Assembly (NCBI GenBank): GCA_038279365.1
Contig: JAYODI010000001.1
Coordinates: 182,137-201,523, forward strand
Length of the DNA stretch: 19,387 nt
Reading direction: 5' to 3'
DNA from: Candidatus Latescibacterota bacterium
Lineage (GTDB): Bacteria; Latescibacterota; UBA2968
Position 1 is the stretch's first letter. Each line of letters starts with the position of its first letter. The position numbers and the translations under genes were made by a program. The notes under the pieces were generated by a model. That model searched no databases, was not told the origin of the DNA, and worked only from the letters and a program-made list of their open reading frames with translations. This document shows, piece after piece, positions 2,778-19,387 of this stretch.

Positions 2778-4139
2778 ATGGCAGTTGAAAACGAAGCAGG
2801 AGAACCCGAACGTCAAAAAAAATACATTCCCCCCGGTATGGTGGGAACATATATGCGGCGCATTGCAGATTCTGACCCATTCGTGCGTGATATTCAAGAT
2901 GAACCATCGGCATTGCGGTTGTATATGGATACGTGTACCAAATGTGGTGTGTGTGCCCAAGAGTGCCCTGTTTATTATGGCCAACCCAACAAACGCATGC
3001 ACCCTGTGGAACGTTCGCGCCAAGTGATACGTTTATATAAAAAGTATACAACATTTTGGGGGCGTTTTTGGGGCTCTATTTTTGACACGCCCGATTTTGA
3101 AGATAACGATGCGGAAGTTTTTGCAGAACGGATGTATGAGTGTTTAACGTGTCGGCGGTGTGCGGCTTATTGTCCTGTGGGCATCGATCATTCGGTTGTT
3201 TCGCGCGTGGGGCGATCATTGGTTGATCTGATGGGGTTAACGCCTCCCTCGTTGGCGCAAGGCACCCAGAACTCGCTTGAAACGGGCAACCTGGAAGGGG
3301 CTTCAACAGAAGCTTTTTTGGATGCCATTGCGTTTATTGAAGAAGAATTAAAAGAAGAAACTGGGGTAGATATTCCCATTCCTTTGGATAAAAAAGGCGC
3401 GGAAGTTTTCTTTTTGCCACCGTCTGGAGATGTGTTGGTTTATGCCGAAAACTTGATGGGCATGGCCAAGGTGTTTTATGCTGCTGGCGTGGATTGGACG
3501 ATGAGCTCTCGGGCTTACGATGGGTCAAATTTTGGGTTTACAACGGGCAATAATTTTTCGATGAAGTATGAAAATAAGCACTATATAGATGCGTGCGAGG
3601 TGCTGGATGCTAAGGTGATGGTGATGGGGGAGTGTGGGCATGCGTATCGGGTGATGAAGTTTATGGCAAGTGAAGGAAGATGGTGGGGAGAATTGTCTTT
3701 TGAAATTACGAGTGGTTTTGAATATACGGCACAACTGATTCGCGACGGACGCTTGAAATTGGATCCTTCTAAAAATGCAGACCCAGTTACGTATCACGAT
3801 TCGTGTCAGTTTGCGGCTGGGTGTGGTATTGTGAGCGAACCGCGTGAAATTTTGAAAGCGGCTTGTGCTGATTTTCGCGAAATGCCCGAAGGAGGCTACA
3901 CGCAGTGGTGTTGCGGTGGTGGTGGTGGGTTGTCGGCTTTGCGATCTGTGCGTGAATTTCGCATGCATATTTCTGGCAAAAAAAAGGCCGAACAGATGCG
4001 TGAGACCGATGCCAAGGTTGTATCTACATCGTGTTTGCAGTGTCGCACACAATTGAAAGAGATTGCACGCTATCATAAAATGCCACTTAAAATTACGGGT
4101 GTGCATGAGTTGGTAAACAATGCGATTGTTATAAAATAG
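2778..4139 (+). CDS. dsrK: DsrK-like (HdrD/HmcF/TmcB family) iron-sulfur protein with two ferredoxin-type [4Fe-4S] motifs and a CCG domain, 453 aa
   Basis: CTKCGVCAQECP and CLTCRRCAAYCPVGID (CxxCxxCxxxCP twice). DsrK-type GECGHAYR. CCG-domain residues TYHDSC...WCCGGGGG...SCLQCR. Lies directly downstream of the DsrM-like gene. Confidence 0.88.
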   Translation: MAVENEAGEPERQKKYIPPGMVGTYMRRIADSDPFVRDIQDEPSALRLYMDTCTKCGVCAQECPVYYGQPNKRMHPVERSRQVIRLYKKYTTFWGRFWGSIFDTPDFEDNDAEVFAERMYECLTCRRCAAYCPVGIDHSVVSRVGRSLVDLMGLTPPSLAQGTQNSLETGNLEGASTEAFLDAIAFIEEELKEETGVDIPIPLDKKGAEVFFLPPSGDVLVYAENLMGMAKVFYAAGVDWTMSSRAYDGSNFGFTTGNNFSMKYENKHYIDACEVLDAKVMVMGECGHAYRVMKFMASEGRWWGELSFEITSGFEYTAQLIRDGRLKLDPSKNADPVTYHDSCQFAAGCGIVSEPREILKAACADFREMPEGGYTQWCCGGGGGLSALRSVREFRMHISGKKKAEQMRETDAKVVSTSCLQCRTQLKEIARYHKMPLKITGVHELVNNAIVIK

Positions 4140-4214
4140 CACTCAGCGATCAGCCTTGGCTATCGGTTTTTGGGGGAGCCGAAAGCTTGTTGCTGACCAG
4201 CTAAAAGCTGAAAG
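4136..4214. repeat. Inverted heptamer tandem-repeat element (TCAGCNN / NNGCTGA) in the dsrK-desulfurase spacer
   Basis: Left arm ATAGCAC TCAGCGA TCAGCCT TGGCTA TCGGTTT; right arm AGCCGA AAGCTTG TTGCTGA CCAGCTAA AAGCTGA AAG. The right-arm units are reverse complements of the left-arm units. Confidence 0.7.
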
Positions 4215-4222
4215 TGGTTTTT

Positions 4223-5392
4223 ATGAGCGATTTGATTTATATGGACAATGCGGCAACGACCTACCCAAAACCGCCTGGTATATTGGAAGATGCGTTGGGC
4301 TTTTATCAAAAGTATGGGGTTAACCCTGGGCGAAGTGGTACCGACCTGGCTCAACAAGCTGAGGCGATGGTGGCTGAGGCACGCCAGTCTTTGACCTCAT
4401 TTTTGGGTGCGACGGGCAGTGCAGATAGATTGGTGTTTACACAAAATGCATCAGACTCCCTCAATATTGCGATTCAGGGTACGCTAAAAGCCGGAGATCA
4501 TGTGATTGCGACTTGTTTGGATCACAACTCTGTGTTGCGCCCGATCTATCATTTGACCAAATATGAAGGGGTTGAGGCAACGTATGTGCCGTTTGATGAG
4601 GCGGGTTATGTTGACCCCGATGCGATTGCACGGGCGATTCAACCCAACACAAAGCTTGTGGTAATGAGCCATGCTTCTAATGTTCTGGGAACCTTGCAAC
4701 CGATTGCTGAAGTGGGTGAAATTTGTCGTGCAAGGGGTGTGATTTTGTGTGTGGATGCGGCGCAAACGGCAGGTATGGTGCCCATTGATATGGAAGATAT
4801 GCAAGCCGATATTTTGTGCTTTACGGGGCACAAGTCTTTGATGGGGCCAACGGGTATTGGGGGGATGTATGTACGTGAAGGCGTGGATGTGGCCCCTTTG
4901 CGATATGGTGGCACGGGCGTGCGCTCAGAACACCTTGAGCACTTGGATGAATATCCGTGGCGTTTGGAATGCGGTACGGGTAATTTGCTGGGTATCGCTG
5001 GTTTGTTAAATGGGCAAAAGTGGATTGCCCGCGAAGGTTTGGGCAATATTCACGCGCGTGAAAAGGCTTTGTTTAAACAGTTGGTAAATGGCTTACGTGA
5101 GGTGGAGGGTGTGATTTTGTATGGTGCAGATCGTTTGGATGAACATGTGGCGGTGTTGTCGGTGAATGTGGTGGGTATGACTGCGAATAATGTGGGCACT
5201 TTGTTAGATGTAAAATTTAATGTGGCTACGCGTACGGGACTTCAGTGTGCGCCCAAGGTTCACGAGTTGTTGGGCACCAAAGATGTAAAGGGTACGGTCA
5301 GAATTTCATTGGGGCCGTTTAATACCGAATCTCATATTGAGACGGTGATAGAAGGTTTGGCTGATATTGCGTCTCGGCATGGAAAAAAATAG
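4223..5392 (+). CDS. Aminotransferase class V PLP enzyme: cysteine desulfurase (SufS/CsdA-related, group II-like) or selenocysteine lyase, about 389 aa
   Basis: IYMDNAATTYPKP, DHNSVLRP, VDAAQTAG, PLP-lysine motif FTGHKSLMGPTGIG, ECGTGN, catalytic Cys motif RTGLQCAP (Cys codon 5246), GTVRISLGPFNT. ATG at 4223 is preferred over GTG at 4214. Confidence 0.9.
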   Translation: MSDLIYMDNAATTYPKPPGILEDALGFYQKYGVNPGRSGTDLAQQAEAMVAEARQSLTSFLGATGSADRLVFTQNASDSLNIAIQGTLKAGDHVIATCLDHNSVLRPIYHLTKYEGVEATYVPFDEAGYVDPDAIARAIQPNTKLVVMSHASNVLGTLQPIAEVGEICRARGVILCVDAAQTAGMVPIDMEDMQADILCFTGHKSLMGPTGIGGMYVREGVDVAPLRYGGTGVRSEHLEHLDEYPWRLECGTGNLLGIAGLLNGQKWIAREGLGNIHAREKALFKQLVNGLREVEGVILYGADRLDEHVAVLSVNVVGMTANNVGTLLDVKFNVATRTGLQCAPKVHELLGTKDVKGTVRISLGPFNTESHIETVIEGLADIASRHGKK

Positions 5393-5471
5393 TCGCAAGT
5401 CTCAGGTCTGCAGGTCGCAGGTCAAAATCTGAAACCCGTGGTGTTGACTTGCAGACTTGCGATTTGTGACT
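5391..5471. repeat. About 80-bp palindromic element of inverted heptamer tandem repeats (RGTCGCA / TGCGACY), copy 1
   Basis: Left AGTCGCA AGTCTCA GGTCTGCA GGTCGCA GGTCAA; right TTGACT TGCAGACT TGCGATT TGTGACT. Bases 5399-5423 are identical to 15325-15349. Confidence 0.85.
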
Positions 5472-5503
5472 GTATTTTAAGATTTGAATCAAGGAGATGT
5501 GTG

Positions 5504-5827
5504 GTGCCTTTTAAAACTGTGACGTTGGGTGGGAAAGAGATTGAGGTGGATGAAGATGGGTTTATTCAGCAACCTGATTTGTGGGATGAGATGGTTGCGA
5601 AAGATTTGGCCGCGCAAGATGGCATTGTGGAAATGACCGAAGCACATTGGGCTGTGGTAAACTATATTCGCACCTATTGGCTCAAGTTTGAGATTGCCCC
5701 GCTTATTCGCAGATTGTGCAAAGAAACCGATTTGGATATTGATACCATTTACGATTTGTTTCCCAATGGGCCTGCTGACGGTGCGTGTAAAATTGCAGGT
5801 TTGCCAACACCGACAGGGTGTACGTAG
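5504..5827 (+). CDS. dsrC: DsrC/TusE family sulfur carrier with both conserved C-terminal cysteines (CX10C), about 107 aa
   Basis: EVDEDGFI, WDEMVA, MTEAHWAVVNYIRTYW, IYDLFPNGPADGACKIAGLPTPTGCT*. Cys codons at 5786 and 5819, the latter penultimate. SD AAGGAG (5491-5496) favours GTG 5504 (or 5501) over 5438. Confidence 0.92.
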   Translation: MPFKTVTLGGKEIEVDEDGFIQQPDLWDEMVAKDLAAQDGIVEMTEAHWAVVNYIRTYWLKFEIAPLIRRLCKETDLDIDTIYDLFPNGPADGACKIAGLPTPTGCT

Positions 5828-5853: not shown

Positions 5854-5896
5854 AATAAAAAAGGGGGATCTCAAAAAGAGATCCCCCTTTTTTATT
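5854..5896. terminator. Bidirectional rho-independent terminator closing the dsr-like operon and the convergent mqnB-mqnD-garR unit
   Basis: Perfect 19-bp inverted repeat AATAAAAAAGGGGGATCTC / AAAAA / GAGATCCCCCTTTTTTATT. Confidence 0.92.
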
Positions 5897-6844: not shown

Positions 6845-7678
6845 TTATTTGTCTATGAATAAGGGTTGTGTAGATGGGGGAATGATGCTGGCAGCTTCGG
6901 CGCGTTGATACAGATCTGTAATGGCAGCTTCGCCGTCGGTCATATAATCGAGGGTATAATCGTTGACATAGAGATCAATGTGTTGTTGCATTACCTGTTC
7001 GTCCATTTCTTGGGCGTGTTGGCGAATGTAGTCTTTAACAGCATTGGGATTGTTGTGTGCAAATTCGACACTGGCCCGTAGAGAACGGTCGATGTTTTGA
7101 ATGATTTCTGTGCCAAGGTCGCGTCGTGCAAGAATGCCACCCAATGGAATGGGATGCCCCGTTGCCGATTCCCACCATTGCCCCAAGTCGATGACTTTGT
7201 GAAGCCCGTAGTTGGGGTAAGTAAAGCGCGATTCGTGAATGATGAGTCCTGCGTCTACATCGCCTTTTTGGGTGGCCGACATAATTTCGTGGAAAGGCAG
7301 TACAACGAGGTTTTGGATTTGTGGATTAAATAGGCGAAGCAGAAGGGCGGCGGTTGTCAATTTGCCAGGAATGGCGATTTTTTTGTGTTGTAAATCTTCT
7401 GAAGACATGGGCTCGCGTGCGATTACCATTGGACCACAACCGCGCCCTAATGCACCACCGGAGCGTAGGAGACAATATCGGTCTCGCAAATGCCCTAAGG
7501 CATGAAATGAGATTTTGGTCATGTCCAATTGATTGTTGGTGGCCATTGTATTGAGGGTTTCAATGTCTTCGAGCACTTCTTTAAATAGCGGTGCATCTTC
7601 AATTTTGTTGTGTACCAGTCCGTAAAAGATGTACGTGTCGTTTGGACAAGGTGAATAACCAAGTGAAATGGCAGACAT
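6845..7678 (-). CDS. mqnD: 1,4-dihydroxy-6-naphthoate synthase (futalosine menaquinone pathway), 277 aa
   Basis: LGYSPCPNDTYIFYGL, DIETLN, GGALGRGCGP, IAIPGKLTTA, GLIIHESRFTY, DLGQWWE...PIPLGGI, HIDLYVNDYT. Confidence 0.93.
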   Translation of the reverse strand: MSAISLGYSPCPNDTYIFYGLVHNKIEDAPLFKEVLEDIETLNTMATNNQLDMTKISFHALGHLRDRYCLLRSGGALGRGCGPMVIAREPMSSEDLQHKKIAIPGKLTTAALLLRLFNPQIQNLVVLPFHEIMSATQKGDVDAGLIIHESRFTYPNYGLHKVIDLGQWWESATGHPIPLGGILARRDLGTEIIQNIDRSLRASVEFAHNNPNAVKDYIRQHAQEMDEQVMQQHIDLYVNDYTLDYMTDGEAAITDLYQRAEAASIIPPSTQPLFIDK

Positions 7679-7753
7679 AAAGACCTCAAAAGAAAGCGAT
7701 GAAATTTAGAACGATGGTTGTGATTTGGTCGTTGATCGATAGCCGGTTATACC

Positions 7754-8470
7754 TTAACTTAGTGCCTGAATCAGTTTGGCTGTAGCTGTTTGGGCCCGTT
7801 GGAGTGCGAGGGGAATGTTCCAGGCGTCTTTGTTGCGGTCTTCGACCTGGTTGCTGATGGCGCGCAGTTCGAGAAATGGAATTTGGTATTGCAAGCAAAT
7901 TTGGGCTGCGGCCACACCCTCCATATTTTCGCAAATGGCATTGAATTTTTTGGCAATATCATTGCCAATATCGGTGCGTCCACTGCATTGTTGCACCGTG
8001 ACAAACGGCCCTACGATGACCTCTTCTTTGGCATTGTGAAGCGCGTTTTGGGCGTCTGTGATGAGATCTGGATCGAGTGGGTAGGTATTAAAAAAATCGC
8101 GATCTGTTTTAAGAACAGGAATTCCGATCTCATTGGCGGGGAGCCAACCGCTTGGGGTGATGATGCCCAGTTCGGCATAATTTTCTTCGCTGGCCATAAC
8201 CAGATCGCCCAGGTTGAGGTGGGCAGGTAGGTAAGCGCCACCAATGCCTGTTTGTAAGACGAGGTCGGGTTTGATTTGTTGAAGGGCCACGGTAAGAGCA
8301 TGTGTGGTATTAACCAAACCCAAGCCTGTTTCTATCAAGATAACAGGATGGTTGCCCAAAATGCCTCGTGTCCACGTGTTGTATGCAATGTTTTGTTGGA
8401 CTGGGTGCGTGAGCTGTTCACGCAAGATTTGTTGCTCAAAGGCTGTGGCTGTAAGAATAAGTGTGGGCAT
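7754..8470 (-). CDS. mqnB: Futalosine hydrolase (PNP/MTAN nucleosidase fold), about 238 aa
   Basis: LILTATAFEQ, ETGLGLVN, LQTGIGGAY, GPFVTVQQCSG, CENMEGVAAAQ, ELRAISNQVEDRNKDAWNIPLAL. Adjacent to mqnD. Start placed at ATG 8470 (MPTLIL); the track's 27-aa extension runs through low-complexity intergenic DNA. Confidence 0.9.
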   Translation of the reverse strand: MPTLILTATAFEQQILREQLTHPVQQNIAYNTWTRGILGNHPVILIETGLGLVNTTHALTVALQQIKPDLVLQTGIGGAYLPAHLNLGDLVMASEENYAELGIITPSGWLPANEIGIPVLKTDRDFFNTYPLDPDLITDAQNALHNAKEEVIVGPFVTVQQCSGRTDIGNDIAKKFNAICENMEGVAAAQICLQYQIPFLELRAISNQVEDRNKDAWNIPLALQRAQTATAKLIQALS

Positions 8471-8562
8471 AAAGTGAAAGTGTAAAATGTGTGATGAAAT
8501 TTGAGATGTTGAAAGATAGCACAACAATGAAAAATGTAAATTAAAAAGCACGCAGATTTATT

Positions 8563-9840: not shown

Positions 9841-10899
9841 TTACTGTGATTTTACGGCAGTCCAAACCACATCATAAAGTTGTGTGTGTTTGCCCACATC
9901 TTGTTGGTATTCGAGTTTTTTCATGGCCGATGCGGGTGGGTAGAGCACGGGATTTTCAAGTGTTTCTTTGTCTAAGAGCTTTTTTGAAGCCTTGTTGGGA
10001 GATGCATATTCTGTATACGTTGAAAGTTGTGCCCCCACTTTGGCATCGAGTATGTAGTTGATAAATTTATGCGCGCCCGATGTGTTGGGTGCTTTGATTG
10101 GAATGGCCATGACATCGGCCCAAACAATGGAGCCTTCGCGGGGGACTATATAGGCAAATTGATCGTTTTCGTCTTCAGAAATGGCACGAAGGGCATCCCC
10201 GTTCCAAACCACTGCCATATCTACGGCCCCAGAAGCCACCCGATTTTTGCCTCCTACGCCACCTTCAAATCCTTGGGCATTGGGGCTTTTTTTGGCGTCG
10301 ATGAGAAGTTGACCCGCTTTTTTGACTTGTTCGGAATCTGTGGTATTGGATGAATAACCCAGATAAACGAGTGCCACACCCAATTGGTCGCGCATTTCAT
10401 CCAACAGAATAAAGGTTCCCACCTCTTTTTTTCGGTCTAAGATGACAGACCAAGAAGGATCGAGGTTGGGAAATTTGGCCTTGTTGTACATGAGACCAAC
10501 GGTGCCCCATTGATAGGCCAAGCTGTATTTGGTTTTGGGATCATAACTCGGATTTAAAAATTCGGCTTCTAAATTTTTGCGATTTGGGATTTGGGTATGA
10601 TCAAGCGGTTTTAAGAGCTCTAAGCGTGACATGAGGGGAACCATCATGTTAGAAACGACCACCACATCATATTGGCTTGCACCGCCGGCATATTGAATTT
10701 TGGCGAGCATCTCTTCCGACGATTCATAGAGTGACAGGTTGACTTTAATGCCTGTGTTCTTTTCAAAGTCGGTTACCATTTCAGGGTCTATATATTCTGA
10801 CCAAATGTATACATTGATTTCTTCTGCGTGACTGTTCTGGGTGATTAAGCCTGATCCCAGAAACAGCAAAATCATACCTGCACGAAAAAGATTCTTCAT
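9841..10899 (-). CDS. potD: Spermidine/putrescine ABC transporter periplasmic binding protein, 352 aa
   Basis: Sec signal peptide ending ...SHA|EE. INVYIWSEYIDP, YESSEEM, YQWGTVGLMYN, WNGDA, PREGSIVWADVMAIP, AHKFINYIL. Confidence 0.9.
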   Translation of the reverse strand: MKNLFRAGMILLFLGSGLITQNSHAEEINVYIWSEYIDPEMVTDFEKNTGIKVNLSLYESSEEMLAKIQYAGGASQYDVVVVSNMMVPLMSRLELLKPLDHTQIPNRKNLEAEFLNPSYDPKTKYSLAYQWGTVGLMYNKAKFPNLDPSWSVILDRKKEVGTFILLDEMRDQLGVALVYLGYSSNTTDSEQVKKAGQLLIDAKKSPNAQGFEGGVGGKNRVASGAVDMAVVWNGDALRAISEDENDQFAYIVPREGSIVWADVMAIPIKAPNTSGAHKFINYILDAKVGAQLSTYTEYASPNKASKKLLDKETLENPVLYPPASAMKKLEYQQDVGKHTQLYDVVWTAVKSQ

Positions 10900-10905
10900 C
10901 GGGCG

Positions 10906-11700
10906 TTACTCCTCGATAGGTGTCTTGGAGAGTTTTTGAAGCCCCAAGACAAGTAGAACGGTTATGAGAACAATCAGCGTGGAGAGCGCGTGAAGCTCAG
11001 GGCTGAGGCCTCGTCTGAGTGATGCATAAATAAAAATGGGTAAGGTATCGGACTTAGGGCCCGATGTAAAAAAGCTAATGACAAAATCGTCTAAAGACAG
11101 TGTGAATGCCAGTGTGGCTCCAGCCAAAATACTGGGTAAAATGAGGGGCAATGTGACCCGTTTGAATAGATCTGGTGGCGATGCATAAAGATCACTGGCA
11201 GCTTCGCTAAATGTGTTGCCCAATGTTTTGAGACGACTGCGCACAATGAGTGCGACAAATGCAATTTGAAATGTTACATGCCCAATGATCATTGAGGCCA
11301 TGCCCGATTGGTATTCGGCCCAAAAAACACGCACAATGCCAAATGCGACGACCAAGGCCGCTGCAAAGATAATATCGGGCGTTACAATGGGTAAATCAAC
11401 CAAAGTGTCTAAGGCCCATTGGGTGCGTGGTCGCCACGGAAAACGTTCCAAACCAATTGCCAAGCAGGTGCCTAATACTGTGGCAATGAGTGTGGATAGG
11501 GTTGCAAGTTGTAGGGTGTTCCAGGTGGCGTTTAAAATGAGTTCATTTTGGAAGAGTTGGGTATACCAAGACAGTGTAAACCCCTTCCATACCAACCCTA
11601 TGCGTGTTGCATTTACCGAATAGATGGAAACGGCCAGCAAGGGTAAATAAAGTATGGCTACAGATAGGGCAATAATTGTGCCTTTGAACATTTGTTTCAT
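10906..11700 (-). CDS. potC: Spermidine/putrescine ABC transporter permease, about 264 aa
   Basis: LYLPL, WKGFTLSWY, EAA loop EAASDLYAS, FTLSLDDFVISFF, TLPIFIY. The ATG at 11700 overlaps the potB stop (ATGA). The 12012 start in the track is an over-extension into potB. Confidence 0.9.
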   Translation of the reverse strand: MKQMFKGTIIALSVAILYLPLLAVSIYSVNATRIGLVWKGFTLSWYTQLFQNELILNATWNTLQLATLSTLIATVLGTCLAIGLERFPWRPRTQWALDTLVDLPIVTPDIIFAAALVVAFGIVRVFWAEYQSGMASMIIGHVTFQIAFVALIVRSRLKTLGNTFSEAASDLYASPPDLFKRVTLPLILPSILAGATLAFTLSLDDFVISFFTSGPKSDTLPIFIYASLRRGLSPELHALSTLIVLITVLLVLGLQKLSKTPIEE

Positions 11701-12602
11701 GGCACATGAACCTGTTGACCTTGTTTGCGATAAAAATAGAGGCCAACCAATGTGAGCACAATCAGCACCAAACTGACAGCGGCCCCAAATGGGTAGTCTC
11801 GGCTGGCACCAAATTGCTGTTGGATGAGATTGCCTACCAACATAAAGTTGGCACCGCCCAAGCGATTGGTAATGACAAACATGCCCATTGTGGGTACAAA
11901 AGTCATTAAGATGGCCACAAAAAGCCCAGGGCGCGTTTGAGGTAAAATGGCAGAACGAAACACGCGCGTTTCTGAAGCATACAGATCTCGTGCGGCTTCG
12001 ACCACAGACCAATTTAGGCGCTCAACGCTGGTGTATAATGGCAAAAGGGCATAGGGCAGAGAATAGGATATCATACCCAAATAAACAGCGATGGTGCTGG
12101 GATAGAGCGCGCGCCCAGTGGGAATGAGCCCAAAATAAGCCGCAATTTGAGACAATGGCAATTGGGGTGAGAGCAACAATTCCCAAGCATAGGTTCGAAT
12201 GACCAAATTGGTACACATGGGAATGACTATGAGTGATAAGGCGATTTGTCTACCGTGCGTACTGAGGTTGTTGATGTAAAATGCCAATGGGTAAGACAAA
12301 AAAACACAAATGGCCGTTACCCAAATGGCGGCCCACAAACTGCGACCCAAAATATAGAGATAGACAGGTGACCAACCAAAGATGCCATAACCGGCCAAGC
12401 GCCTAAAATTGTCGAGTGTCCACTGCCAAACAATTTGGCCATCGGGGCCACGCGTTGTTAACGACAAAAGCCCCACAAAAAAAGAGGGCAAAATCATAAA
12501 CAGCAGCATCCACGCTATGCCCAGTGCAATGCTTGCCAGTGCAATGAGAAACAATCGTCGCCGGGTGGTGATTTGACCGTGAAAAACAAACTGCTTAATC
12601 AC
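11697..12602 (-). CDS. potB: Spermidine/putrescine ABC transporter permease, about 301 aa
   Basis: LSYPLAF, TNLVIRTYAW, LPYALLPLY, EAARDLYAS, GNLIQQQFGASRDYPFGAA. The GTG start at 12602 overlaps the potA stop. Confidence 0.9.
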   Translation of the reverse strand: MIKQFVFHGQITTRRRLFLIALASIALGIAWMLLFMILPSFFVGLLSLTTRGPDGQIVWQWTLDNFRRLAGYGIFGWSPVYLYILGRSLWAAIWVTAICVFLSYPLAFYINNLSTHGRQIALSLIVIPMCTNLVIRTYAWELLLSPQLPLSQIAAYFGLIPTGRALYPSTIAVYLGMISYSLPYALLPLYTSVERLNWSVVEAARDLYASETRVFRSAILPQTRPGLFVAILMTFVPTMGMFVITNRLGGANFMLVGNLIQQQFGASRDYPFGAAVSLVLIVLTLVGLYFYRKQGQQVHVP

Positions 12603-13686
12603 GCAAGACCTCAATGTATTCGGGCGGCAGTTGAATGCTGAGCTTGTTGTTGGGCACCAGTGCAGCTGTGGGTGCCGTTCGAATGCGCAAGGCGCCGGGG
12701 TTGACCAATACTTCGCAATGATCTCCACGATAGATGGCGTCTTGGATGGTGACAGACAGGCCATTGATGTCGGCTGGGTTGTCACATATGCGAATGCGTT
12801 CTGGACGAATCATGATGGTGCCTGTTTGCCAGTCGGGTTTTTGTGACAAGGCAAAATCACCCAATGCAGTGTGTACCAATGCCGAGCCATTTCTTTGAGC
12901 TTGAATGAGGTTGGCACTGCCCAAAAACTCGGCCACAAACCGAGAGGTGGGTTTTTCATATATTTCAGAAGGTGAACCATATTGTTCGATTTGCCCTTCT
13001 TTCATTACAAAAATGCGATCGGATACAGTAAGGGCTTCGTCTTGGTCGTGGGTGACCAACATAAATGTGGTGTTGGAGCTGCGCTGTATGCGACGCAATT
13101 CTACTTGAAGTTCGTTGCGCAATTTGGCATCTAAGGCTGACATGGGTTCGTCTAATAACAAGAGCAAGGGTTCGTTAACCAATGCACGTGCCAGAGCAAC
13201 ACGCTGTTTTTGCCCACCTGATAGGTTGTTTGGCAAACGGTTTTCAAAGGCTTCCAATTGCACCAGTGCAAGGCTTTTGGACACTTTTTCTTTTATCTCT
13301 TTGGCTGGCTTTTTTCGAGATTTGAGGCCAAATGCAATGTTTTCGTATACATTGAGGTGTGGAAATAACGCGTAGTTTTGGAAGACGGTGTTGACGGGGC
13401 GTGTATAAGCTGGGGCATGTGTAACGTGTTGCCCGTTGAGGAAAATATGGCCCGAATCGGGTAGTTCGAGGCCTGCAAGGATGCGTAGAAGGGTTGTTTT
13501 GCCACAACCGGAAGGGCCAAGGAGGGTAACAAATTCTCCTCGGTTGACTTGGATGTTGATGTTTTGCAGTACGGGGGTGTCACCAAAAGATTTGTGAATG
13601 TCTTGAATGGACAAAAAGGCACTGTCACAAGTTGATGAGGTGATTGGTGGGGGTTGAATAGGGACTCGCAAACGCCATTTAAACAT
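12595..13686 (-). CDS. potA: Spermidine/putrescine ABC transporter ATP-binding subunit, up to 363 aa
   Basis: Walker A GPSGCGKTT, VFQNYALFPHLNV, signature LSGGQKQRVALARAL, Walker B LLLLDEP, VTHDQDEAL, C-terminal TOBE-like region. The exact start could be slightly downstream. Confidence 0.92.
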   Translation of the reverse strand: MFKWRLRVPIQPPPITSSTCDSAFLSIQDIHKSFGDTPVLQNINIQVNRGEFVTLLGPSGCGKTTLLRILAGLELPDSGHIFLNGQHVTHAPAYTRPVNTVFQNYALFPHLNVYENIAFGLKSRKKPAKEIKEKVSKSLALVQLEAFENRLPNNLSGGQKQRVALARALVNEPLLLLLDEPMSALDAKLRNELQVELRRIQRSSNTTFMLVTHDQDEALTVSDRIFVMKEGQIEQYGSPSEIYEKPTSRFVAEFLGSANLIQAQRNGSALVHTALGDFALSQKPDWQTGTIMIRPERIRICDNPADINGLSVTIQDAIYRGDHCEVLVNPGALRIRTAPTAALVPNNKLSIQLPPEYIEVLRD

Positions 13687-14119
13687 TGGGCAGACCTTTT
13701 GTGTGATGCACGGGCATAAAAGGATAAGCAGTTAAAAAGTGGGTTTGTTTTTGATTTGTAAAATCTGCGATGTGCCAAGGTTGTGTGGACAACACTGGGC
13801 GATATTTTTTTTGTATGCAATACACATGAGCGTTGACCATTGTGCCATTGGTTAATCGCACACGTGTTTGAATGCGTTTGTAAAAATCACCTTCAAAAAA
13901 ATCTAAGCGTTTGAGTGCTGGCAATGTGACATGGAGATACAATTTGCCAGATGTTTGGGCACCGTAAAAGGGTTTGATGCCCGGATAAACCTCACCGCGC
14001 ACACAACAGCACATATACCCATCTAATACTGCGTTTTGGGCAGTGAAAAGATGTCCTGCAACGCGTTGAAAAATGCTGGAGATTTGAAGTGTGCCATATG
14101 TAAAGAGATGTGTACGCAT
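13679..14119 (-). CDS. Gamma-glutamylcyclotransferase-fold protein (GGACT/AIG2/YtfP-like), 146 aa
   Basis: N-terminal LFTYGTL motif, YPGI, GKLY, LKRLDFFEGDFYKR with the conserved Glu, AHVY. Overlaps the potA start by 8 nt. Confidence 0.88.
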   Translation of the reverse strand: MRTHLFTYGTLQISSIFQRVAGHLFTAQNAVLDGYMCCCVRGEVYPGIKPFYGAQTSGKLYLHVTLPALKRLDFFEGDFYKRIQTRVRLTNGTMVNAHVYCIQKKYRPVLSTQPWHIADFTNQKQTHFLTAYPFMPVHHTKGLPNV

Positions 14120-16784: not shown

Positions 16785-19387
16785 ATGAACAAAAACAGTT
16801 TATTTTACCCTGCTCCGCTTATCGAAAAGGCACAAAAAAACATCGCGCAGTATACTTGGGCAAAAGACATACAAGACCAGATCGTGCAAGATGCCCAACC
16901 TTGGATGCGTTTTTCGGACGATGACCTTTGGGGTTTGATGTTTGGCAACACGCTTAAGCGTTCTTGGATGGTGTGGTCCAATGGGCATTGCCCCGTGTGT
17001 AAAACAAGTGTGCCCATGTATAATTGGGAAATTGATGCGTTGACTCGCCCTTGGAAAGTGCGTTGCCCACATTGCGCTGAAATTTTCCCAAAGAATGATT
17101 TTTATGCGTATTACCAATCGGGACTTGATGAACATCATATTTTTGATGGCGCCTTGGCAGATCGGTCTTTGTTGTTCAATGTTGAACATCCAGATCCCAG
17201 CCAACCTGCGCATCTTTTTGGTGTGGATGATGGTGATGGTTTTCGTGCTGATGATCATATTTGGTGGTTTGTGGCCACATATTTGATTTATGGCCAATGG
17301 AAACAAGTGGTGCAAAAAGGAATTTGCAAGTTGGCCAATGCATATACGGTCACGGGTGATCACGTGTATGCCCATAAGGCGGGGATTATGCTTGATCGCG
17401 TGGCCGATCTTTATCCGACATTTGATTTTAAGGAAGAGGGTGTGCTTTATGAAAAACCTGCGGCGGCGGGGTATGTGTCTACGTGGCATGATGCGTGCGA
17501 AGAAGTGCGTGAATTGATTTTGGCTTATGATCAAATTCGAGAGGTTGTTGCTGAAGATGAGGATCTGGCAACCTTTCTCCAAAAGAAGTCGGAACAGCAT
17601 CAAATAGGTGTGTCGAAGTCGCATCCAGAGGATGTGATGCACAATATTGAAACGCGCATTTTAGGAGAGACGTTGGTAAACTATGATAAAATTCGCTCCA
17701 ATTATCCTCGGCAAGAAATTGCGTTGATTGTCTGTCACACGGTTTTGGAGTGGCCAGAAAACAGAGATGCGGTGATGGGATTGATTGATGAGATGGTGGA
17801 GACGGCCACGGCGGTGGATGGTGTGACGGGTGAAAAAGGATTGGCAGGATATTCTTCGGGAGTGATTCAAAGTTTGGCGCAATTTCTTGAGTTGTTTGGG
17901 CGGGTAGATCCTCACTTTTTAGATGAGATGCTTCAACGGCATCCCAAACTATCACAGACGTATCGGTTTCATATTGATACAATGTGTCTTCAAAATTATT
18001 ATCCGCGCATTGGTGATACGGGTGGGTTTGCACAAAAGACCGAGCAATATGTGGGTGTGTCGTTTTCCAAAAACGCGGGTTTGTTGCCTTCGATGTATTC
18101 TTTTCTTTGGCGTTTGTATGAGCGCACGGGTGATGTGGGATATGTACAGGCTTTGTATCGGGCAAATGGATATGGGGTGGATGGTTTGCCATTTGATTTG
18201 TTTGCTGAAGATTGTGAAGGTTTTCGAAAGTCGGTTCAAGAGATTATCGCAAAAGAAGGATTGGAATTTCACAATGTGAGTGTAAACAAAGAAGGTTGGC
18301 ATTTGGCACTGTTGCGTTCTGGGCAAGGTGGGGATGAGCGCGTGGTGTGGTTGGATTATGACACGGGGGGGCGGCATGGTCATTTGGATGCGTTGAATAT
18401 GGGGCTGTTTGCAAAGGGGTTGGATTTGATGCCCGATTTTGGTTATCCCCCCGTGCATATGGGCGGTTGGGAAGGGGATCTGTTTAACTGGTATCTCAAC
18501 ACACCTGCGCACAATACGGTTGTTGTGGATGGTCAAAATCAGAAGAAGCCGATTGATGGGGTGACCAAGCTTTGGGCAGTGGGCGATTGTTTGCGAGCGA
18601 TCCAAGCATCTTGTGAAGCGGTGTATGATGTTGCGCGATATGAGCGCACCGTTGTGATGGTGGATGTTTCTGATACGGATAGCTATGTGTTGGATGTGTT
18701 TCAGGTTGCCGGTGGGCGTGATCACGCAAAGTTTATGCACAGCCATTTTGGTGAAGTGACGACACATGGTTTGGATTTGCAGGCTGGTGATGATTATGGT
18801 TATCAAACGCAGATGCGCAATTTTCGGTGTGATCTCAGTCCCAAAACAGGGTGGTGGGTCGATTGGTTGGCCGAGGATCGGTTGGGTTATTTAGACGCGG
18901 GCCGAGCGGTCCATGTGCGATATACCGATTTGACCACTCAGGCAGAAGCCCATATTGCCGAAGGGTGGGTGGCGATGGGTTTTAACAATGACAATGTTGC
19001 CTGGATTCCGCGATTGATGGTGCGCCGCCAAAGTGAGGATGCCAATTTGGTTTCGACATTTGTGGGCGTTTGTGAACCGTATGAAGGAAGCTCTCAGATT
19101 GCGTCGATCACGCGTTTGCCGTTGGTGAAGGAAAACGGCGACAGGTGCCCAGATACTTATGTTGCGGTTGAAGTTCAGTTGGTGGATGGACGGTGCGATT
19201 TGTTAATTGTTTCAGATCGTGATGATTTGCAAGATGTTTCTGATGTTGTGATTCAAGAAGCGTGGGGCGTGCGTTTGGCGGGAGAATTAGGCTGGGTAAG
19301 AAAACGAGTGGATGGGACTGTTGAACGGGTACTGTTACATGGCAAAGCGTTGCGCGTTGATCAGGTTGATTTATCTGGTGAAACGGG
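16785..19387 (+). CDS. Large heparinase II/III-like (polysaccharide/oligosaccharide lyase-fold) protein, >867 aa; 3'-truncated by the window edge and absent from the ORF track
   Basis: ATG at 16785 after SD AAGGA. Translated segments at the start, middle and end are all in the same frame: MNKNSLFYPAPLIEKAQKNIAQYTWAK...; YYPRIGDTG; the heparinase II/III-type motif GGRHGHLDALNMGLFAKGLDLMPDFGYP...WYLNTPAHNTVVVDGQNQ (about 18366-18542); YERTVVMV...YVLDVFQVAGG. No stop codon was seen before the window end. Confidence 0.85.
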   Translation, partial: MNKNSLFYPAPLIEKAQKNIAQYTWAKDIQDQIVQDAQPWMRFSDDDLWGLMFGNTLKRSWMVWSNGHCPVCKTSVPMYNWEIDALTRPWKVRCPHCAEIFPKNDFYAYYQSGLDEHHIFDGALADRSLLFNVEHPDPSQPAHLFGVDDGDGFRADDHIWWFVATYLIYGQWKQVVQKGICKLANAYTVTGDHVYAHKAGIMLDRVADLYPTFDFKEEGVLYEKPAAAGYVSTWHDACEEVRELILAYDQIREVVAEDEDLATFLQKKSEQHQIGVSKSHPEDVMHNIETRILGETLVNYDKIRSNYPRQEIALIVCHTVLEWPENRDAVMGLIDEMVETATAVDGVTGEKGLAGYSSGVIQSLAQFLELFGRVDPHFLDEMLQRHPKLSQTYRFHIDTMCLQNYYPRIGDTGGFAQKTEQYVGVSFSKNAGLLPSMYSFLWRLYERTGDVGYVQALYRANGYGVDGLPFDLFAEDCEGFRKSVQEIIAKEGLEFHNVSVNKEGWHLALLRSGQGGDERVVWLDYDTGGRHGHLDALNMGLFAKGLDLMPDFGYPPVHMGGWEGDLFNWYLNTPAHNTVVVDGQNQKKPIDGVTKLWAVGDCLRAIQASCEAVYDVARYERTVVMVDVSDTDSYVLDVFQVAGGRDHAKFMHSHFGEVTTHGLDLQAGDDYGYQTQMRNFRCDLSPKTGWWVDWLAEDRLGYLDAGRAVHVRYTDLTTQAEAHIAEGWVAMGFNNDNVAWIPRLMVRRQSEDANLVSTFVGVCEPYEGSSQIASITRLPLVKENGDRCPDTYVAVEVQLVDGRCDLLIVSDRDDLQDVSDVVIQEAWGVRLAGELGWVRKRVDGTVERVLLHGKALRVDQVDLSGET

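Follow-up and report, generated by a model that had tools for sequence, protein, structure and literature searches.

In a 19,387-nucleotide stretch of the genome of a Candidatus Latescibacterota bacterium (GenBank assembly GCA_038279365.1, contig JAYODI010000001.1, positions 182,137 to 201,523 of the forward strand; hereafter the window, numbered from its first letter), a gene for a DsrC protein closes an operon in which a cysteine desulfurase takes the place expected for the dissimilatory sulfite reductase DsrAB. The gene order is DsrM-like, DsrK-like, TIGR01977 cysteine desulfurase and DsrC, all on the + strand and separated by spacers of 69-111 nt. The operon, rather than its DsrC, is the unusual part. 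We propose that it encodes a quinol-dependent 'cysteine-sulfur reductase', in which the desulfurase, instead of DsrAB, would load the C-terminal cysteine of DsrC (CysA) and the DsrMK-like pair would then reduce the loaded protein to sulfide with menaquinol; we put the probability of this reading at about one half. Directly observed on the genomes are gene content and order, conservation, co-occurrence within the phylum and the catalytic residues, as well as the lack of DsrAB and of the Tus relay.

The DsrC gene and its two redox cysteines

The open reading frame (ORF) at 5504-5827 (+) translates to 107 residues with the C-terminal end GACKIAGLPTPTGCT (in a longer reading of the tail, ...NGPADGACKIAGLPTPTGCT, followed by the stop codon at 5825-5827). 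It scored 114.9 bits against PF04358 (cut-off 24.9) and 109.2 bits against TIGR03342 (cut-off 53.5), and it is the sole PF04358 gene of its genome. A Shine-Dalgarno-like AAGGAG at 5491-5496 on the + strand lies 7 nt before the GTG start at 5504, and this start is supported because 107-aa relatives in the database span 100% of the protein. The translation places CysB (Cys95) at codon 5786-5788 (+) and CysA (Cys106) at codon 5819-5821 (+), in a CX10C spacing, which confirms the starting point of the original prediction, namely two cysteines with ten residues between them and the second one penultimate. Both cysteines, and with them the C-x10-C-x ending, were kept in 121/121 sequences, namely the query plus the 120 homologues that matched it best in the database (62-93% identity), and the same ending was present in 23/23 DsrC ORFs of loci with the same type of gene module (L001, the window's own, and L004-L025). 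The prediction had depended in part on the conservation of CysB among syntenic homologues, and in these it proved invariant. Cys95 and Cys106 may form an intramolecular disulfide or trisulfide. The premise that TusE-type proteins carry a one-cysteine tail holds for E. coli K-12 TusE, which ends in KQATKIAGLPKPVKCI and has Thr in place of CysB.

A module conserved in one family of Latescibacterota lacking DsrAB

The genome that contains the window (6.03 Mb, 98.5% complete, 7.4% contaminated) has single copies of the DsrM-like and DsrK-like genes. Neither dsrA nor dsrB was found in it by profile search, the best matches reaching 24.9 and 30.9 bits against cut-offs of 392.85 and 341.5, respectively. 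A hidden sulfite reductase was considered and rejected, as both of these matches correspond to a NirA-family assimilatory protein that is also present in lineages lacking the module. This 745-aa protein (G000:C12:21203-23440; L002:400-2637) is a sirohaem nitrite/sulfite reductase that contains two NIR_SIR repeats and extends about 160 residues past the NirA profile match; it scored below all curated cut-offs (best 280.6 versus 523) and is kept in several families of the phylum. Additionally, TusA, DsrE/TusCD and DsrH/TusB (PF01206, PF02635 and PF04077) gave no match in this 98.5%-complete genome.

We collected 62 genome loci, 22 of which encode a DsrC at 76-88% identity to that of the window. 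The desulfurase gene lies directly before dsrC in 22/22 of these loci, and the DsrM-like and DsrK-like genes are visible in 21, the remaining one ending at a contig edge. All of the other 40 loci lack an adjacent desulfurase (in L063 a desulfurase-like match of 29% lies 2.4 kb upstream), and 29/40 have a DsrK gene at 26-36% identity. A similar picture was obtained from 80 metagenome loci. Eight were of the module type (71-93% identity), with the desulfurase in 7/8 and the two-cysteine DsrC in 4/8; the gene order was kept as far as the contigs extend, and the missing genes correspond to contig ends. In the 72 non-module metagenome loci no desulfurase was found in the module position. L188 has a desulfurase-like match of 52% about 1.2 kb upstream of its DsrC-like gene, on the opposite strand, and L131 has one of 39% about 6 kb away.

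In a sample of 151 genomes of the phylum, DsrC was above cut-off in 32 and the DsrK-like protein (at least 73% identity) was present in 28. Both were found in 27/30 genomes of one family (f1); two f1 genomes of genus g5 (100% and 95% complete) have neither gene, and in one further f1 genome (G054) the DsrK-like gene is cut at a contig end. No other family in this sample has the pair, three genomes elsewhere giving only 25-30% matches. In this sample the DsrC and DsrK-like genes were thus gained or lost together. Furthermore, dsrA was above cut-off in 1/151 genomes and in 0/30 of f1, where 12 of the module-bearing genomes are single contigs. The single positive genome (G008), which is not from f1, carries a true dsrA (G008:C258:1160-2089, L066; 466.9 bits). 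Its assembly comprises 410 contigs, the one with dsrA being about 2 kb long, and its lone DsrC-family gene is of the one-cysteine type; this dsrA may be contamination, or may belong to a real sulfite reducer of another family.

This distribution bears on whether the operon could be a decaying remnant of a lost dissimilatory sulfite reduction, with dsrMK-dsrC left behind and the desulfurase an unrelated neighbour. The dsrM-dsrK-dsrC order of the sulfite reducer Pelotomaculum would fit such an origin, as would Lawsonia, which the available text of PMC3397948 gives as a DsrAB-less genus keeping both cysteines. However, the four genes are intact and their catalytic residues kept across 66-93% identity in at least five genera, the desulfurase is found between dsrK and dsrC in all 22 loci, the DsrK-like protein is not of the genuine DsrK lineage, and, as a weak argument, RNA libraries from three studies contain nearly identical fragments. 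We give the remnant hypothesis almost no credence.

The DsrC of the window resembles reductive-type DsrCs

The window protein resembles an ordinary reductive-type DsrC in its identities, its profile scores, its place in the tree and two discrete characters. It is 63% identical, without gaps, to the DsrC of locus L028, which comes from a dsrA-bearing genome and has a DsrK gene about 1.8 kb downstream, compared with 40% identity and a 7-residue gap for E. coli TusE and 35% identity for the Tyr-type partner protein of the accessory DsrMK-like loci described below. The five nearest outgroup DsrCs examined are 55-67% identical, and true dsrA (573-587 bits) is present in 4/5 of their genomes. Matches to solved structures comprised seven dissimilatory DsrCs at 81-113 bits and a single chain named 'Sulfurtransferase' at 32 bits. 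Regarding the discrete characters, residue C72 is common to 6/9 of the closest two-cysteine DsrCs in the alignment and occurs in none of the oxidative, TusE or one-cysteine types, and the window protein lacks the 7 residues inserted in oxidative DsrCs and in E. coli TusE. In a careful tree (44 rows, 105 columns) the DsrCs of the module formed one clade (support 99/90) in a polytomy with reductive DsrCs, E. coli TusE being placed inside a separate 99/95 clade, and a quick 78-row tree agreed with this result. According to the available text of PMC8477390, DiSCo asks at the C-terminus for AGLPKPTG(not N)CA, tolerating a single difference, or alternatively for the two cysteines; the window DsrC reads AGLPTPTGCT, which with two differences (T for K, and T for the final A) fails the motif, and qualifies through its two cysteines. 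The view of this protein as a bridge between the biosynthetic and respiratory branches of the family was not borne out, since it looks like an ordinary reductive type and not like an intermediate.

A biosynthetic relay has also to be considered, in which the desulfurase would load DsrC for a biosynthetic acceptor (MnmA in tRNA thiolation, a thio-cofactor or Fe-S assembly) and the DsrMK-like pair would only reset disulfide-trapped DsrC. A desulfurase beside a small cysteine carrier is the usual biosynthetic layout (SufS-SufE, CsdA-CsdE, IscS-TusA), DsrC belongs to the TusE/DsrC family, and MnmA is present in the genome of the window while TusA and TusBCD were not found there. In addition, approximately unbiased (AU) tests on the DsrC alignment, which is short (105 columns), rejected none of the alternatives offered, that is, a clade of the module DsrCs with E. 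coli TusE (p = 0.085), with the one-cysteine proteins of the phylum (p = 0.051) or with the Tyr-type partners (p = 0.43). On the other hand, MnmA was found in 38/41 sampled genomes, with or without a DsrC-family gene and including families that have none. Because MnmA is widespread and the module is confined to one family, s2U synthesis in the phylum needs no module. No sulfur-related genes flank mnmA, and the DsrC scored 75.7 bits against the TusE equivalog NF008562, below its cut-off of 191. Other Latescibacterota families (f10 and f11) have distinct one-cysteine TusE-like proteins (e.g. ...KKATYIAGLPKPKSCI) that are 38-41% identical to the window DsrC, and neither DsrMK nor a desulfurase was found near their genes. 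A membrane quinol oxidase would moreover be a costly reset device. We consider such a relay unlikely. The original prediction had favoured a DsrK-type substrate over a TusE-type relay, and this part is supported: DsrC shares its operon with the DsrM-like and DsrK-like genes and co-occurs with them across the phylum sample, the cysteines of the DsrK-like protein are kept, TusA and TusBCD were not found, MnmA occurs regardless of any DsrC-family gene, and CysB is invariant among syntenic homologues. The AU tests, however, do not formally reject an affinity to TusE.

A dedicated cysteine desulfurase

The gene directly upstream of dsrC (4214-5392, +) encodes a pyridoxal phosphate (PLP)-dependent cysteine desulfurase of the TIGR01977 (EF2568) type, with a score of 427.9 bits (cut-off 377), and the pairing with a desulfurase noted in the original prediction is thus correct. 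Its start is likely the ATG at 4223, where the database gene call (389 aa) begins. The lysine of a GHK motif, K204, and the cysteine of a GLQCAP motif, C342 (P0124 numbering), are invariant in 50 desulfurase homologues; by comparison with other class-V desulfurases we take them to be the PLP lysine and the catalytic cysteine. Homologues at 54-59% identity carry names from Bacteroidia, Sphingobacteriales and Ignavibacteriae. A housekeeping set is present elsewhere in the genome, with an IscS-type gene beside apbC, a SufS gene beside sufD and a NifS-like gene at another place. The IscS-type and SufS genes each have an Fe-S context of their own, so that the desulfurase of the operon is an extra, dedicated copy.

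Among characterised enzymes, the nearest TIGR01977 relative is SclA (EF2568) of E. faecalis, which the available part of preprint 10.1101/2020.02.07.939272 describes as a selenocysteine lyase, and the window protein scored 325.9 bits against the SclA profile NF040779. The operon might accordingly serve selenium trafficking, with a selenocysteine lyase loading DsrC, which would hold selenium as a selenotrisulfide between two cysteines ten residues apart, and with the DsrMK-like pair delivering selenide for SelD. The genome does contain selD (G000:C34:35750-36673) with one in-frame TGA, so that its SelD presumably contains selenocysteine; an in-frame-TGA selD is likewise found in most sampled Latescibacterota genomes. 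However, the SclA score is below its cut-off of 525, selD lies on a different contig from the operon, and selD was above cut-off in 118/151 genomes, including those of the module-less families f2 (19/19) and f3 (61/64) and of genus g5 (2/2), which also lacks the module. Selenium use thus does not track the module, because selD is also present in these module-less families and genus. The same part of the SclA preprint offers no readable sequence determinant of specificity for selenium over sulfur. Selenium trafficking appears very improbable to us.

DsrM-like and DsrK-like proteins from an accessory lineage

The first gene of the operon (1815-2708, +) encodes a DsrM-like di-haem cytochrome b anchor of the NarI family (PF02665 Nitrate_red_gam, 36.5 bits), for which DsrM is the family with the best score. 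Its true start is likely the ATG at 1923, judging from relatives that align from about residue 37 on. It has four invariant haem histidines in common with the DsrMs of dsr operons. An insertion of about 14-21 aa before the first histidine helix, seen in the DsrMs of L026, L028 and L030, is missing in the window protein, and an insertion-free DsrM is also found in the DsrMK-only Pelotomaculum; L030, whose DsrM has the insertion, encodes DsrJ, DsrO and DsrP above cut-offs. The available text of preprint 10.64898/2026.08.25.746951 proposes that the DsrM-1 type oxidises quinol itself. The window protein resembles this type in its four histidines and its lack of the insertion, which is equated with the TMH3 loop of the preprint by position only.

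The second gene (2778-4139, +) encodes a DsrK-like Fe-S catalytic subunit of the HdrD/DsrK type with Fer4_8 and CCG domains. DsrK (NF045796) is its best-scoring family (315.6 bits), ahead of TmcB (210.3) and HmcF (194.9). The protein has two CX2CX2CX3C motifs (C53-C63 and C122-C132) and the CCG cysteines C343, C378-C379 and C419-x2-C422; together with C286-G-H288, the residues C53-C63, C122-C132, C343, C378-C379 and C419 are invariant in comparison with four genuine DsrKs. Section 7 of the same preprint, as far as its available text goes, describes in A. fulgidus DsrK a conserved non-ligating Cys329 together with His331. The C286-G-H288 motif fits this pair, a correspondence mapped by motif and not by alignment with the A. 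fulgidus sequence. With its catalytic and cluster residues intact, the DsrK-like protein looks competent.

Many DsrK-like relatives at 47-54% identity exist, which are labelled '(Fe-S)-binding protein' and carry names from KSB1, Gemmatimonadales, Planctomycetota and other groups. In the metagenome loci that encode them, a one-cysteine DsrC-family gene (tail ...GAYRLAGLPRPxGCx, with Tyr at the CysB position) lies directly upstream in 43/49 assessable loci, and 21/48 loci with enough downstream DNA also encode a ~220-aa protein that matches the DsrC profile two or three times and has a cysteine at the CysB position only. In these accessory loci (L124-L196) the redox cysteines are split over two proteins (e.g. 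L191:5510-5908 and L191:8528-9190). A DsrK tree (32 rows, 457 columns) separated 11 genuine DsrKs from the accessory family together with all 8 module proteins, with support of 100/100. The DsrMK-like pairs of this lineage thus consistently accompany DsrC-family proteins, which supports DsrC as the substrate of such pairs. A mosaic origin is suggested for the operon, with DsrC from the canonical lineage and DsrMK from the accessory lineage.

A proposed route from cysteine to sulfide

In the reaction that we propose, the PLP-dependent desulfurase would remove sulfur from L-cysteine, yielding alanine and keeping the sulfur as an enzyme persulfide. The next acceptor of this sulfur would be CysA, the penultimate Cys106 in DsrC's flexible C-terminal arm, where Cys95 (CysB) could either capture it as a stable intramolecular trisulfide or resolve the persulfide, giving H2S and a disulfide. 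The non-cubane [4Fe-4S] site of the DsrK-like protein would reduce the oxidised or sulfur-loaded arm to sulfide and dithiol DsrC, with electrons coming from menaquinol through the di-haem DsrM-like anchor, whose site would open to the outer side of the membrane. Oxidation of menaquinol on this side could add to the proton-motive force, and the net reaction would be cysteine + menaquinol giving alanine + H2S + menaquinone. We infer that sulfur passes from the desulfurase to DsrC, and likewise what CysB does chemically, which way the electrons flow and which product is formed.

The scheme has two in-vitro precedents. E. coli IscS with cysteine persulfurated A. vinosum DsrC, and sulfur binding was lost on mutation of the penultimate cysteine, according to the available text of PMC3397948. 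A. fulgidus DsrMKJOP is reported to have menadiol:DsrC-trisulfide oxidoreductase activity and to release sulfide (PMC10861901, available part). Furthermore, we count the futalosine-pathway genes mqnD and mqnB next to the operon as an indication in favour of a role for menaquinol. A structure prediction for the desulfurase dimer with DsrC gave a complex score of 0.59, the best of three controls being 0.00, with at least 72% contact agreement between runs and a partner predicted local distance difference test (pLDDT) score of at least 86. The mark for this score was reached by 116/157 solved complexes and 2/215 mismatched pairs, and passing scores of up to 0.60 comprise only 18 of the 157 solved complexes plus both of the passing mismatches. 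The model lends the proposal weak support.

Several points weigh against this proposal. The complex prediction passed its mark weakly, and as a three-chain prediction from our own alignments it lies outside the calibration of the tool. The DsrM-like protein scored 50.7 bits against NF038037 DsrM, where the cut-off is 300, and the DsrK-like protein remained below the NF045796 cut-off of 400. In the A. fulgidus enzyme Asp500 replaces a cluster-ligating cysteine and is called strictly conserved among Dsr proteins (10.64898/2026.08.25.746951, available text), and the window protein has Cys422 at this position; in our alignment the position is occupied by Cys in Pelotomaculum (L031) and in the gammaproteobacterial L049, and by Asp only in L028 and L030. 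As the tree indicates, the DsrMK-like pair is not of the genuine DsrK lineage, and its accessory relatives usually have one-cysteine partners, so its substrate need not match that of genuine DsrK. The affinity of DsrC to TusE left unrejected by the AU tests belongs here as well, as does the selenocysteine lyase that sequence comparison places closest to the desulfurase among characterised enzymes. CysB is invariant in the alignments and would be needless for simple reduction of a persulfide on CysA, which leaves its chemistry unaccounted for by our reading. A further objection is energetic. With menaquinone at about -74 mV and S0/H2S at about -270 mV, a quinol-driven reduction runs uphill, an objection that applies equally to DsrMKJOP.

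An obligatory role for CysB would follow if the pathway ran in the oxidative direction, with the DsrMK-like pair oxidising cysteine-derived persulfide and CysB to the trisulfide and passing electrons into the menaquinone pool. The available text of PMC8477390 gives a parallel in sulfur oxidisers, whose persulfurated DsrC is oxidised to the trisulfide by DsrMK(JOP). However, no DsrAB was found that would carry the trisulfide on to sulfite; DsrEFH-type genes were not found either (sHdr, Sox and Apr were not searched for, and another oxidising enzyme could act downstream), and the DsrC is of the reductive type, without the insertion of oxidative DsrCs. We judge the oxidative direction quite unlikely.

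A more ambitious form of the reductive scheme would make cysteine sulfane sulfur a terminal electron acceptor in bacteria without sulfite reductase, that is, an energy-conserving 'cysteine-sulfur respiration' with protons released at the outer face. In such a respiration the desulfurase would replace DsrAB as the loader of DsrC, a minimal DsrMK-like complex would reduce loaded DsrC with menaquinol, and the CysB trisulfide would keep reactive sulfur from leaking. We regard this extension as tentative and less likely than not.

Spacer elements, expression and neighbouring genes

An intrinsic-terminator-like hairpin at 5854-5896 (+), with a 19-pair stem followed by a T run, ends the operon and is the sole long-stem terminator-like site between 1700 and 5950. 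Within the same limits, including the spacer before dsrC, five sigma-70-like promoter sites were found, compared with 6.0 expected by chance. The spacer after the desulfurase stop and before dsrC contains a 39-nt GTC-rich tandem-heptamer element (5392-5430). Seven copies of it at no more than 6 mismatches occur in the genome in either orientation, six of them in short intergenic spacers; the other copies are at C129:52287, C132:5881 (within a long open frame), C149:31713, C160:16896, C168:27743 and C183:8658, and one lies between the IscS-type gene and apbC. We rejected the element as a sulfur-specific signal, since 6/7 copies are in ordinary spacers in either orientation, and it probably belongs to the genome rather than to the module.

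Evidence for transcription was looked for in RNA libraries. Each of five runs contained just 6-8% of the sampled words. Four runs from three studies yielded 10 contig pieces. Eight of them, 161-263 nt long and with 0-1 differences, match the dsrK-like, desulfurase and dsrC genes, and two match nothing but the 39-nt element. No contig from these libraries lies on the dsrM-like gene or bridges two genes, except that one extends 47 nt beyond the desulfurase stop. These contigs are short, carry-over of DNA is possible and the uncovered parts are uninformative, which counts against reading much into them; the matches are a weak hint of expression.

Downstream, on the opposite strand, are a tartronate-semialdehyde-reductase-like gene and then the menaquinone genes mqnD (PF02621) and mqnB, the futalosine hydrolase (TIGR03664), at 6845-8551 (-). 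Within the fetched flanks of the 22 related loci, mqnD was present in 18/22 and the tartronate-semialdehyde-reductase-like gene in 19/22. Further along, at 9841-14119 (-), lies a potABCD-type polyamine ABC transporter operon with a gamma-glutamyl cyclotransferase-like gene first; the listed ORFs of the two pot permeases overlap by about 300 nt and their true starts are probably internal. The window closes with an ORF at 16785-19385 (+), open at its 3' end, for a protein longer than 867 aa, whose C-terminal domain is heparinase II/III-like and which weakly matches oligoalginate lyase; this fits the polysaccharide-degrading lifestyle reported for the phylum.

Relation to known systems and implications

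The closest known arrangement is the dsrMK-dsrC-dsrN locus of Pelotomaculum propionicicum (L031), which exemplifies the two-subunit DsrMK (DsrM-1 type) of Gram-positive sulfite/sulfate reducers. It likewise has a two-cysteine CX10C-x DsrC, 55% identical to that of the window, the order dsrM, dsrK and then dsrC without dsrJOP, a DsrM without the occluding insertion and a DsrK whose last CCG position reads CxxC, and the chemistry to be expected would be the same, a quinol-driven reduction of the sulfur-loaded DsrC arm. Unlike Pelotomaculum, the genome of the window gave no DsrAB in the profile search and has the desulfurase inserted between dsrK and dsrC, and its DsrK-like protein is 34% identical to that of Pelotomaculum, across the 100/100 split, the DsrM-like and DsrK-like proteins scoring below the curated cut-offs. 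The A. fulgidus DsrMKJOP complex also acts on a two-cysteine DsrC, and its DsrK has a single CCG site plus two ferredoxin-type clusters, with Cys-Gly-His in both enzymes (PMC10861901 and 10.64898/2026.08.25.746951, available parts). It differs in having the J, O and P subunits, the DsrM insertion and Asp500 in the position of a cysteine in the window protein, and in the sulfur donor, which here would be the desulfurase and not DsrAB.

The E. coli Tus relay (IscS, TusA, TusBCD, TusE and MnmA) shares with the window the family (PF04358/TIGR03342), the penultimate cysteine and a desulfurase as the source of sulfur. Unlike TusE, which is 40% identical, the window DsrC keeps CysB where TusE has Thr, its partner genes are DsrMK-like, and TusA/TusBCD were not found. 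The accessory split-cysteine modules (L124-L196) have DsrK-like proteins at 47-54% identity that share the window protein's side of the tree split, with invariant C286-G-H288 and C419-x2-C422 in both; the partners are a two-cysteine DsrC and a desulfurase in the window, and one-cysteine Tyr-type and ~220-aa CysB-only proteins in the accessory modules.

CysB has been stated to occur only together with DsrAB, except in Methylococcaceae, Marinobacter and Lawsonia (PMC3397948, available text), and the available part of the DiSCo paper lists DsrC in four DsrAB-less genomes with no further comment there (PMC8477390). We found no description of a desulfurase-DsrC-DsrMK module in the literature searched, which did not include the review of Venceslau et al. 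2014 (BBA), where DsrAB-less two-cysteine DsrCs may be discussed, and dsrC in Latescibacterota was found only as passing mentions. The conserved operon may represent an undescribed route by which cysteine sulfur is turned into sulfide and which would be tied to the respiratory quinone pool.

DsrC and DsrMK are usually taken as markers of DsrAB-dependent dissimilatory sulfur metabolism. In one DsrAB-less family of Latescibacterota, a two-cysteine DsrC, a DsrMK-like pair and a desulfurase are kept as a unit. If our proposal is correct, DsrC-based sulfur chemistry would exist independently of sulfite reductase, surveys that use dsrC and dsrMK as marker genes would misassign such organisms, and cysteine would be a candidate electron sink and source of sulfide in sediments. 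With four genes and one soluble substrate, the module could also be a handy system for the study of DsrK-type non-cubane clusters acting on protein-bound sulfur.

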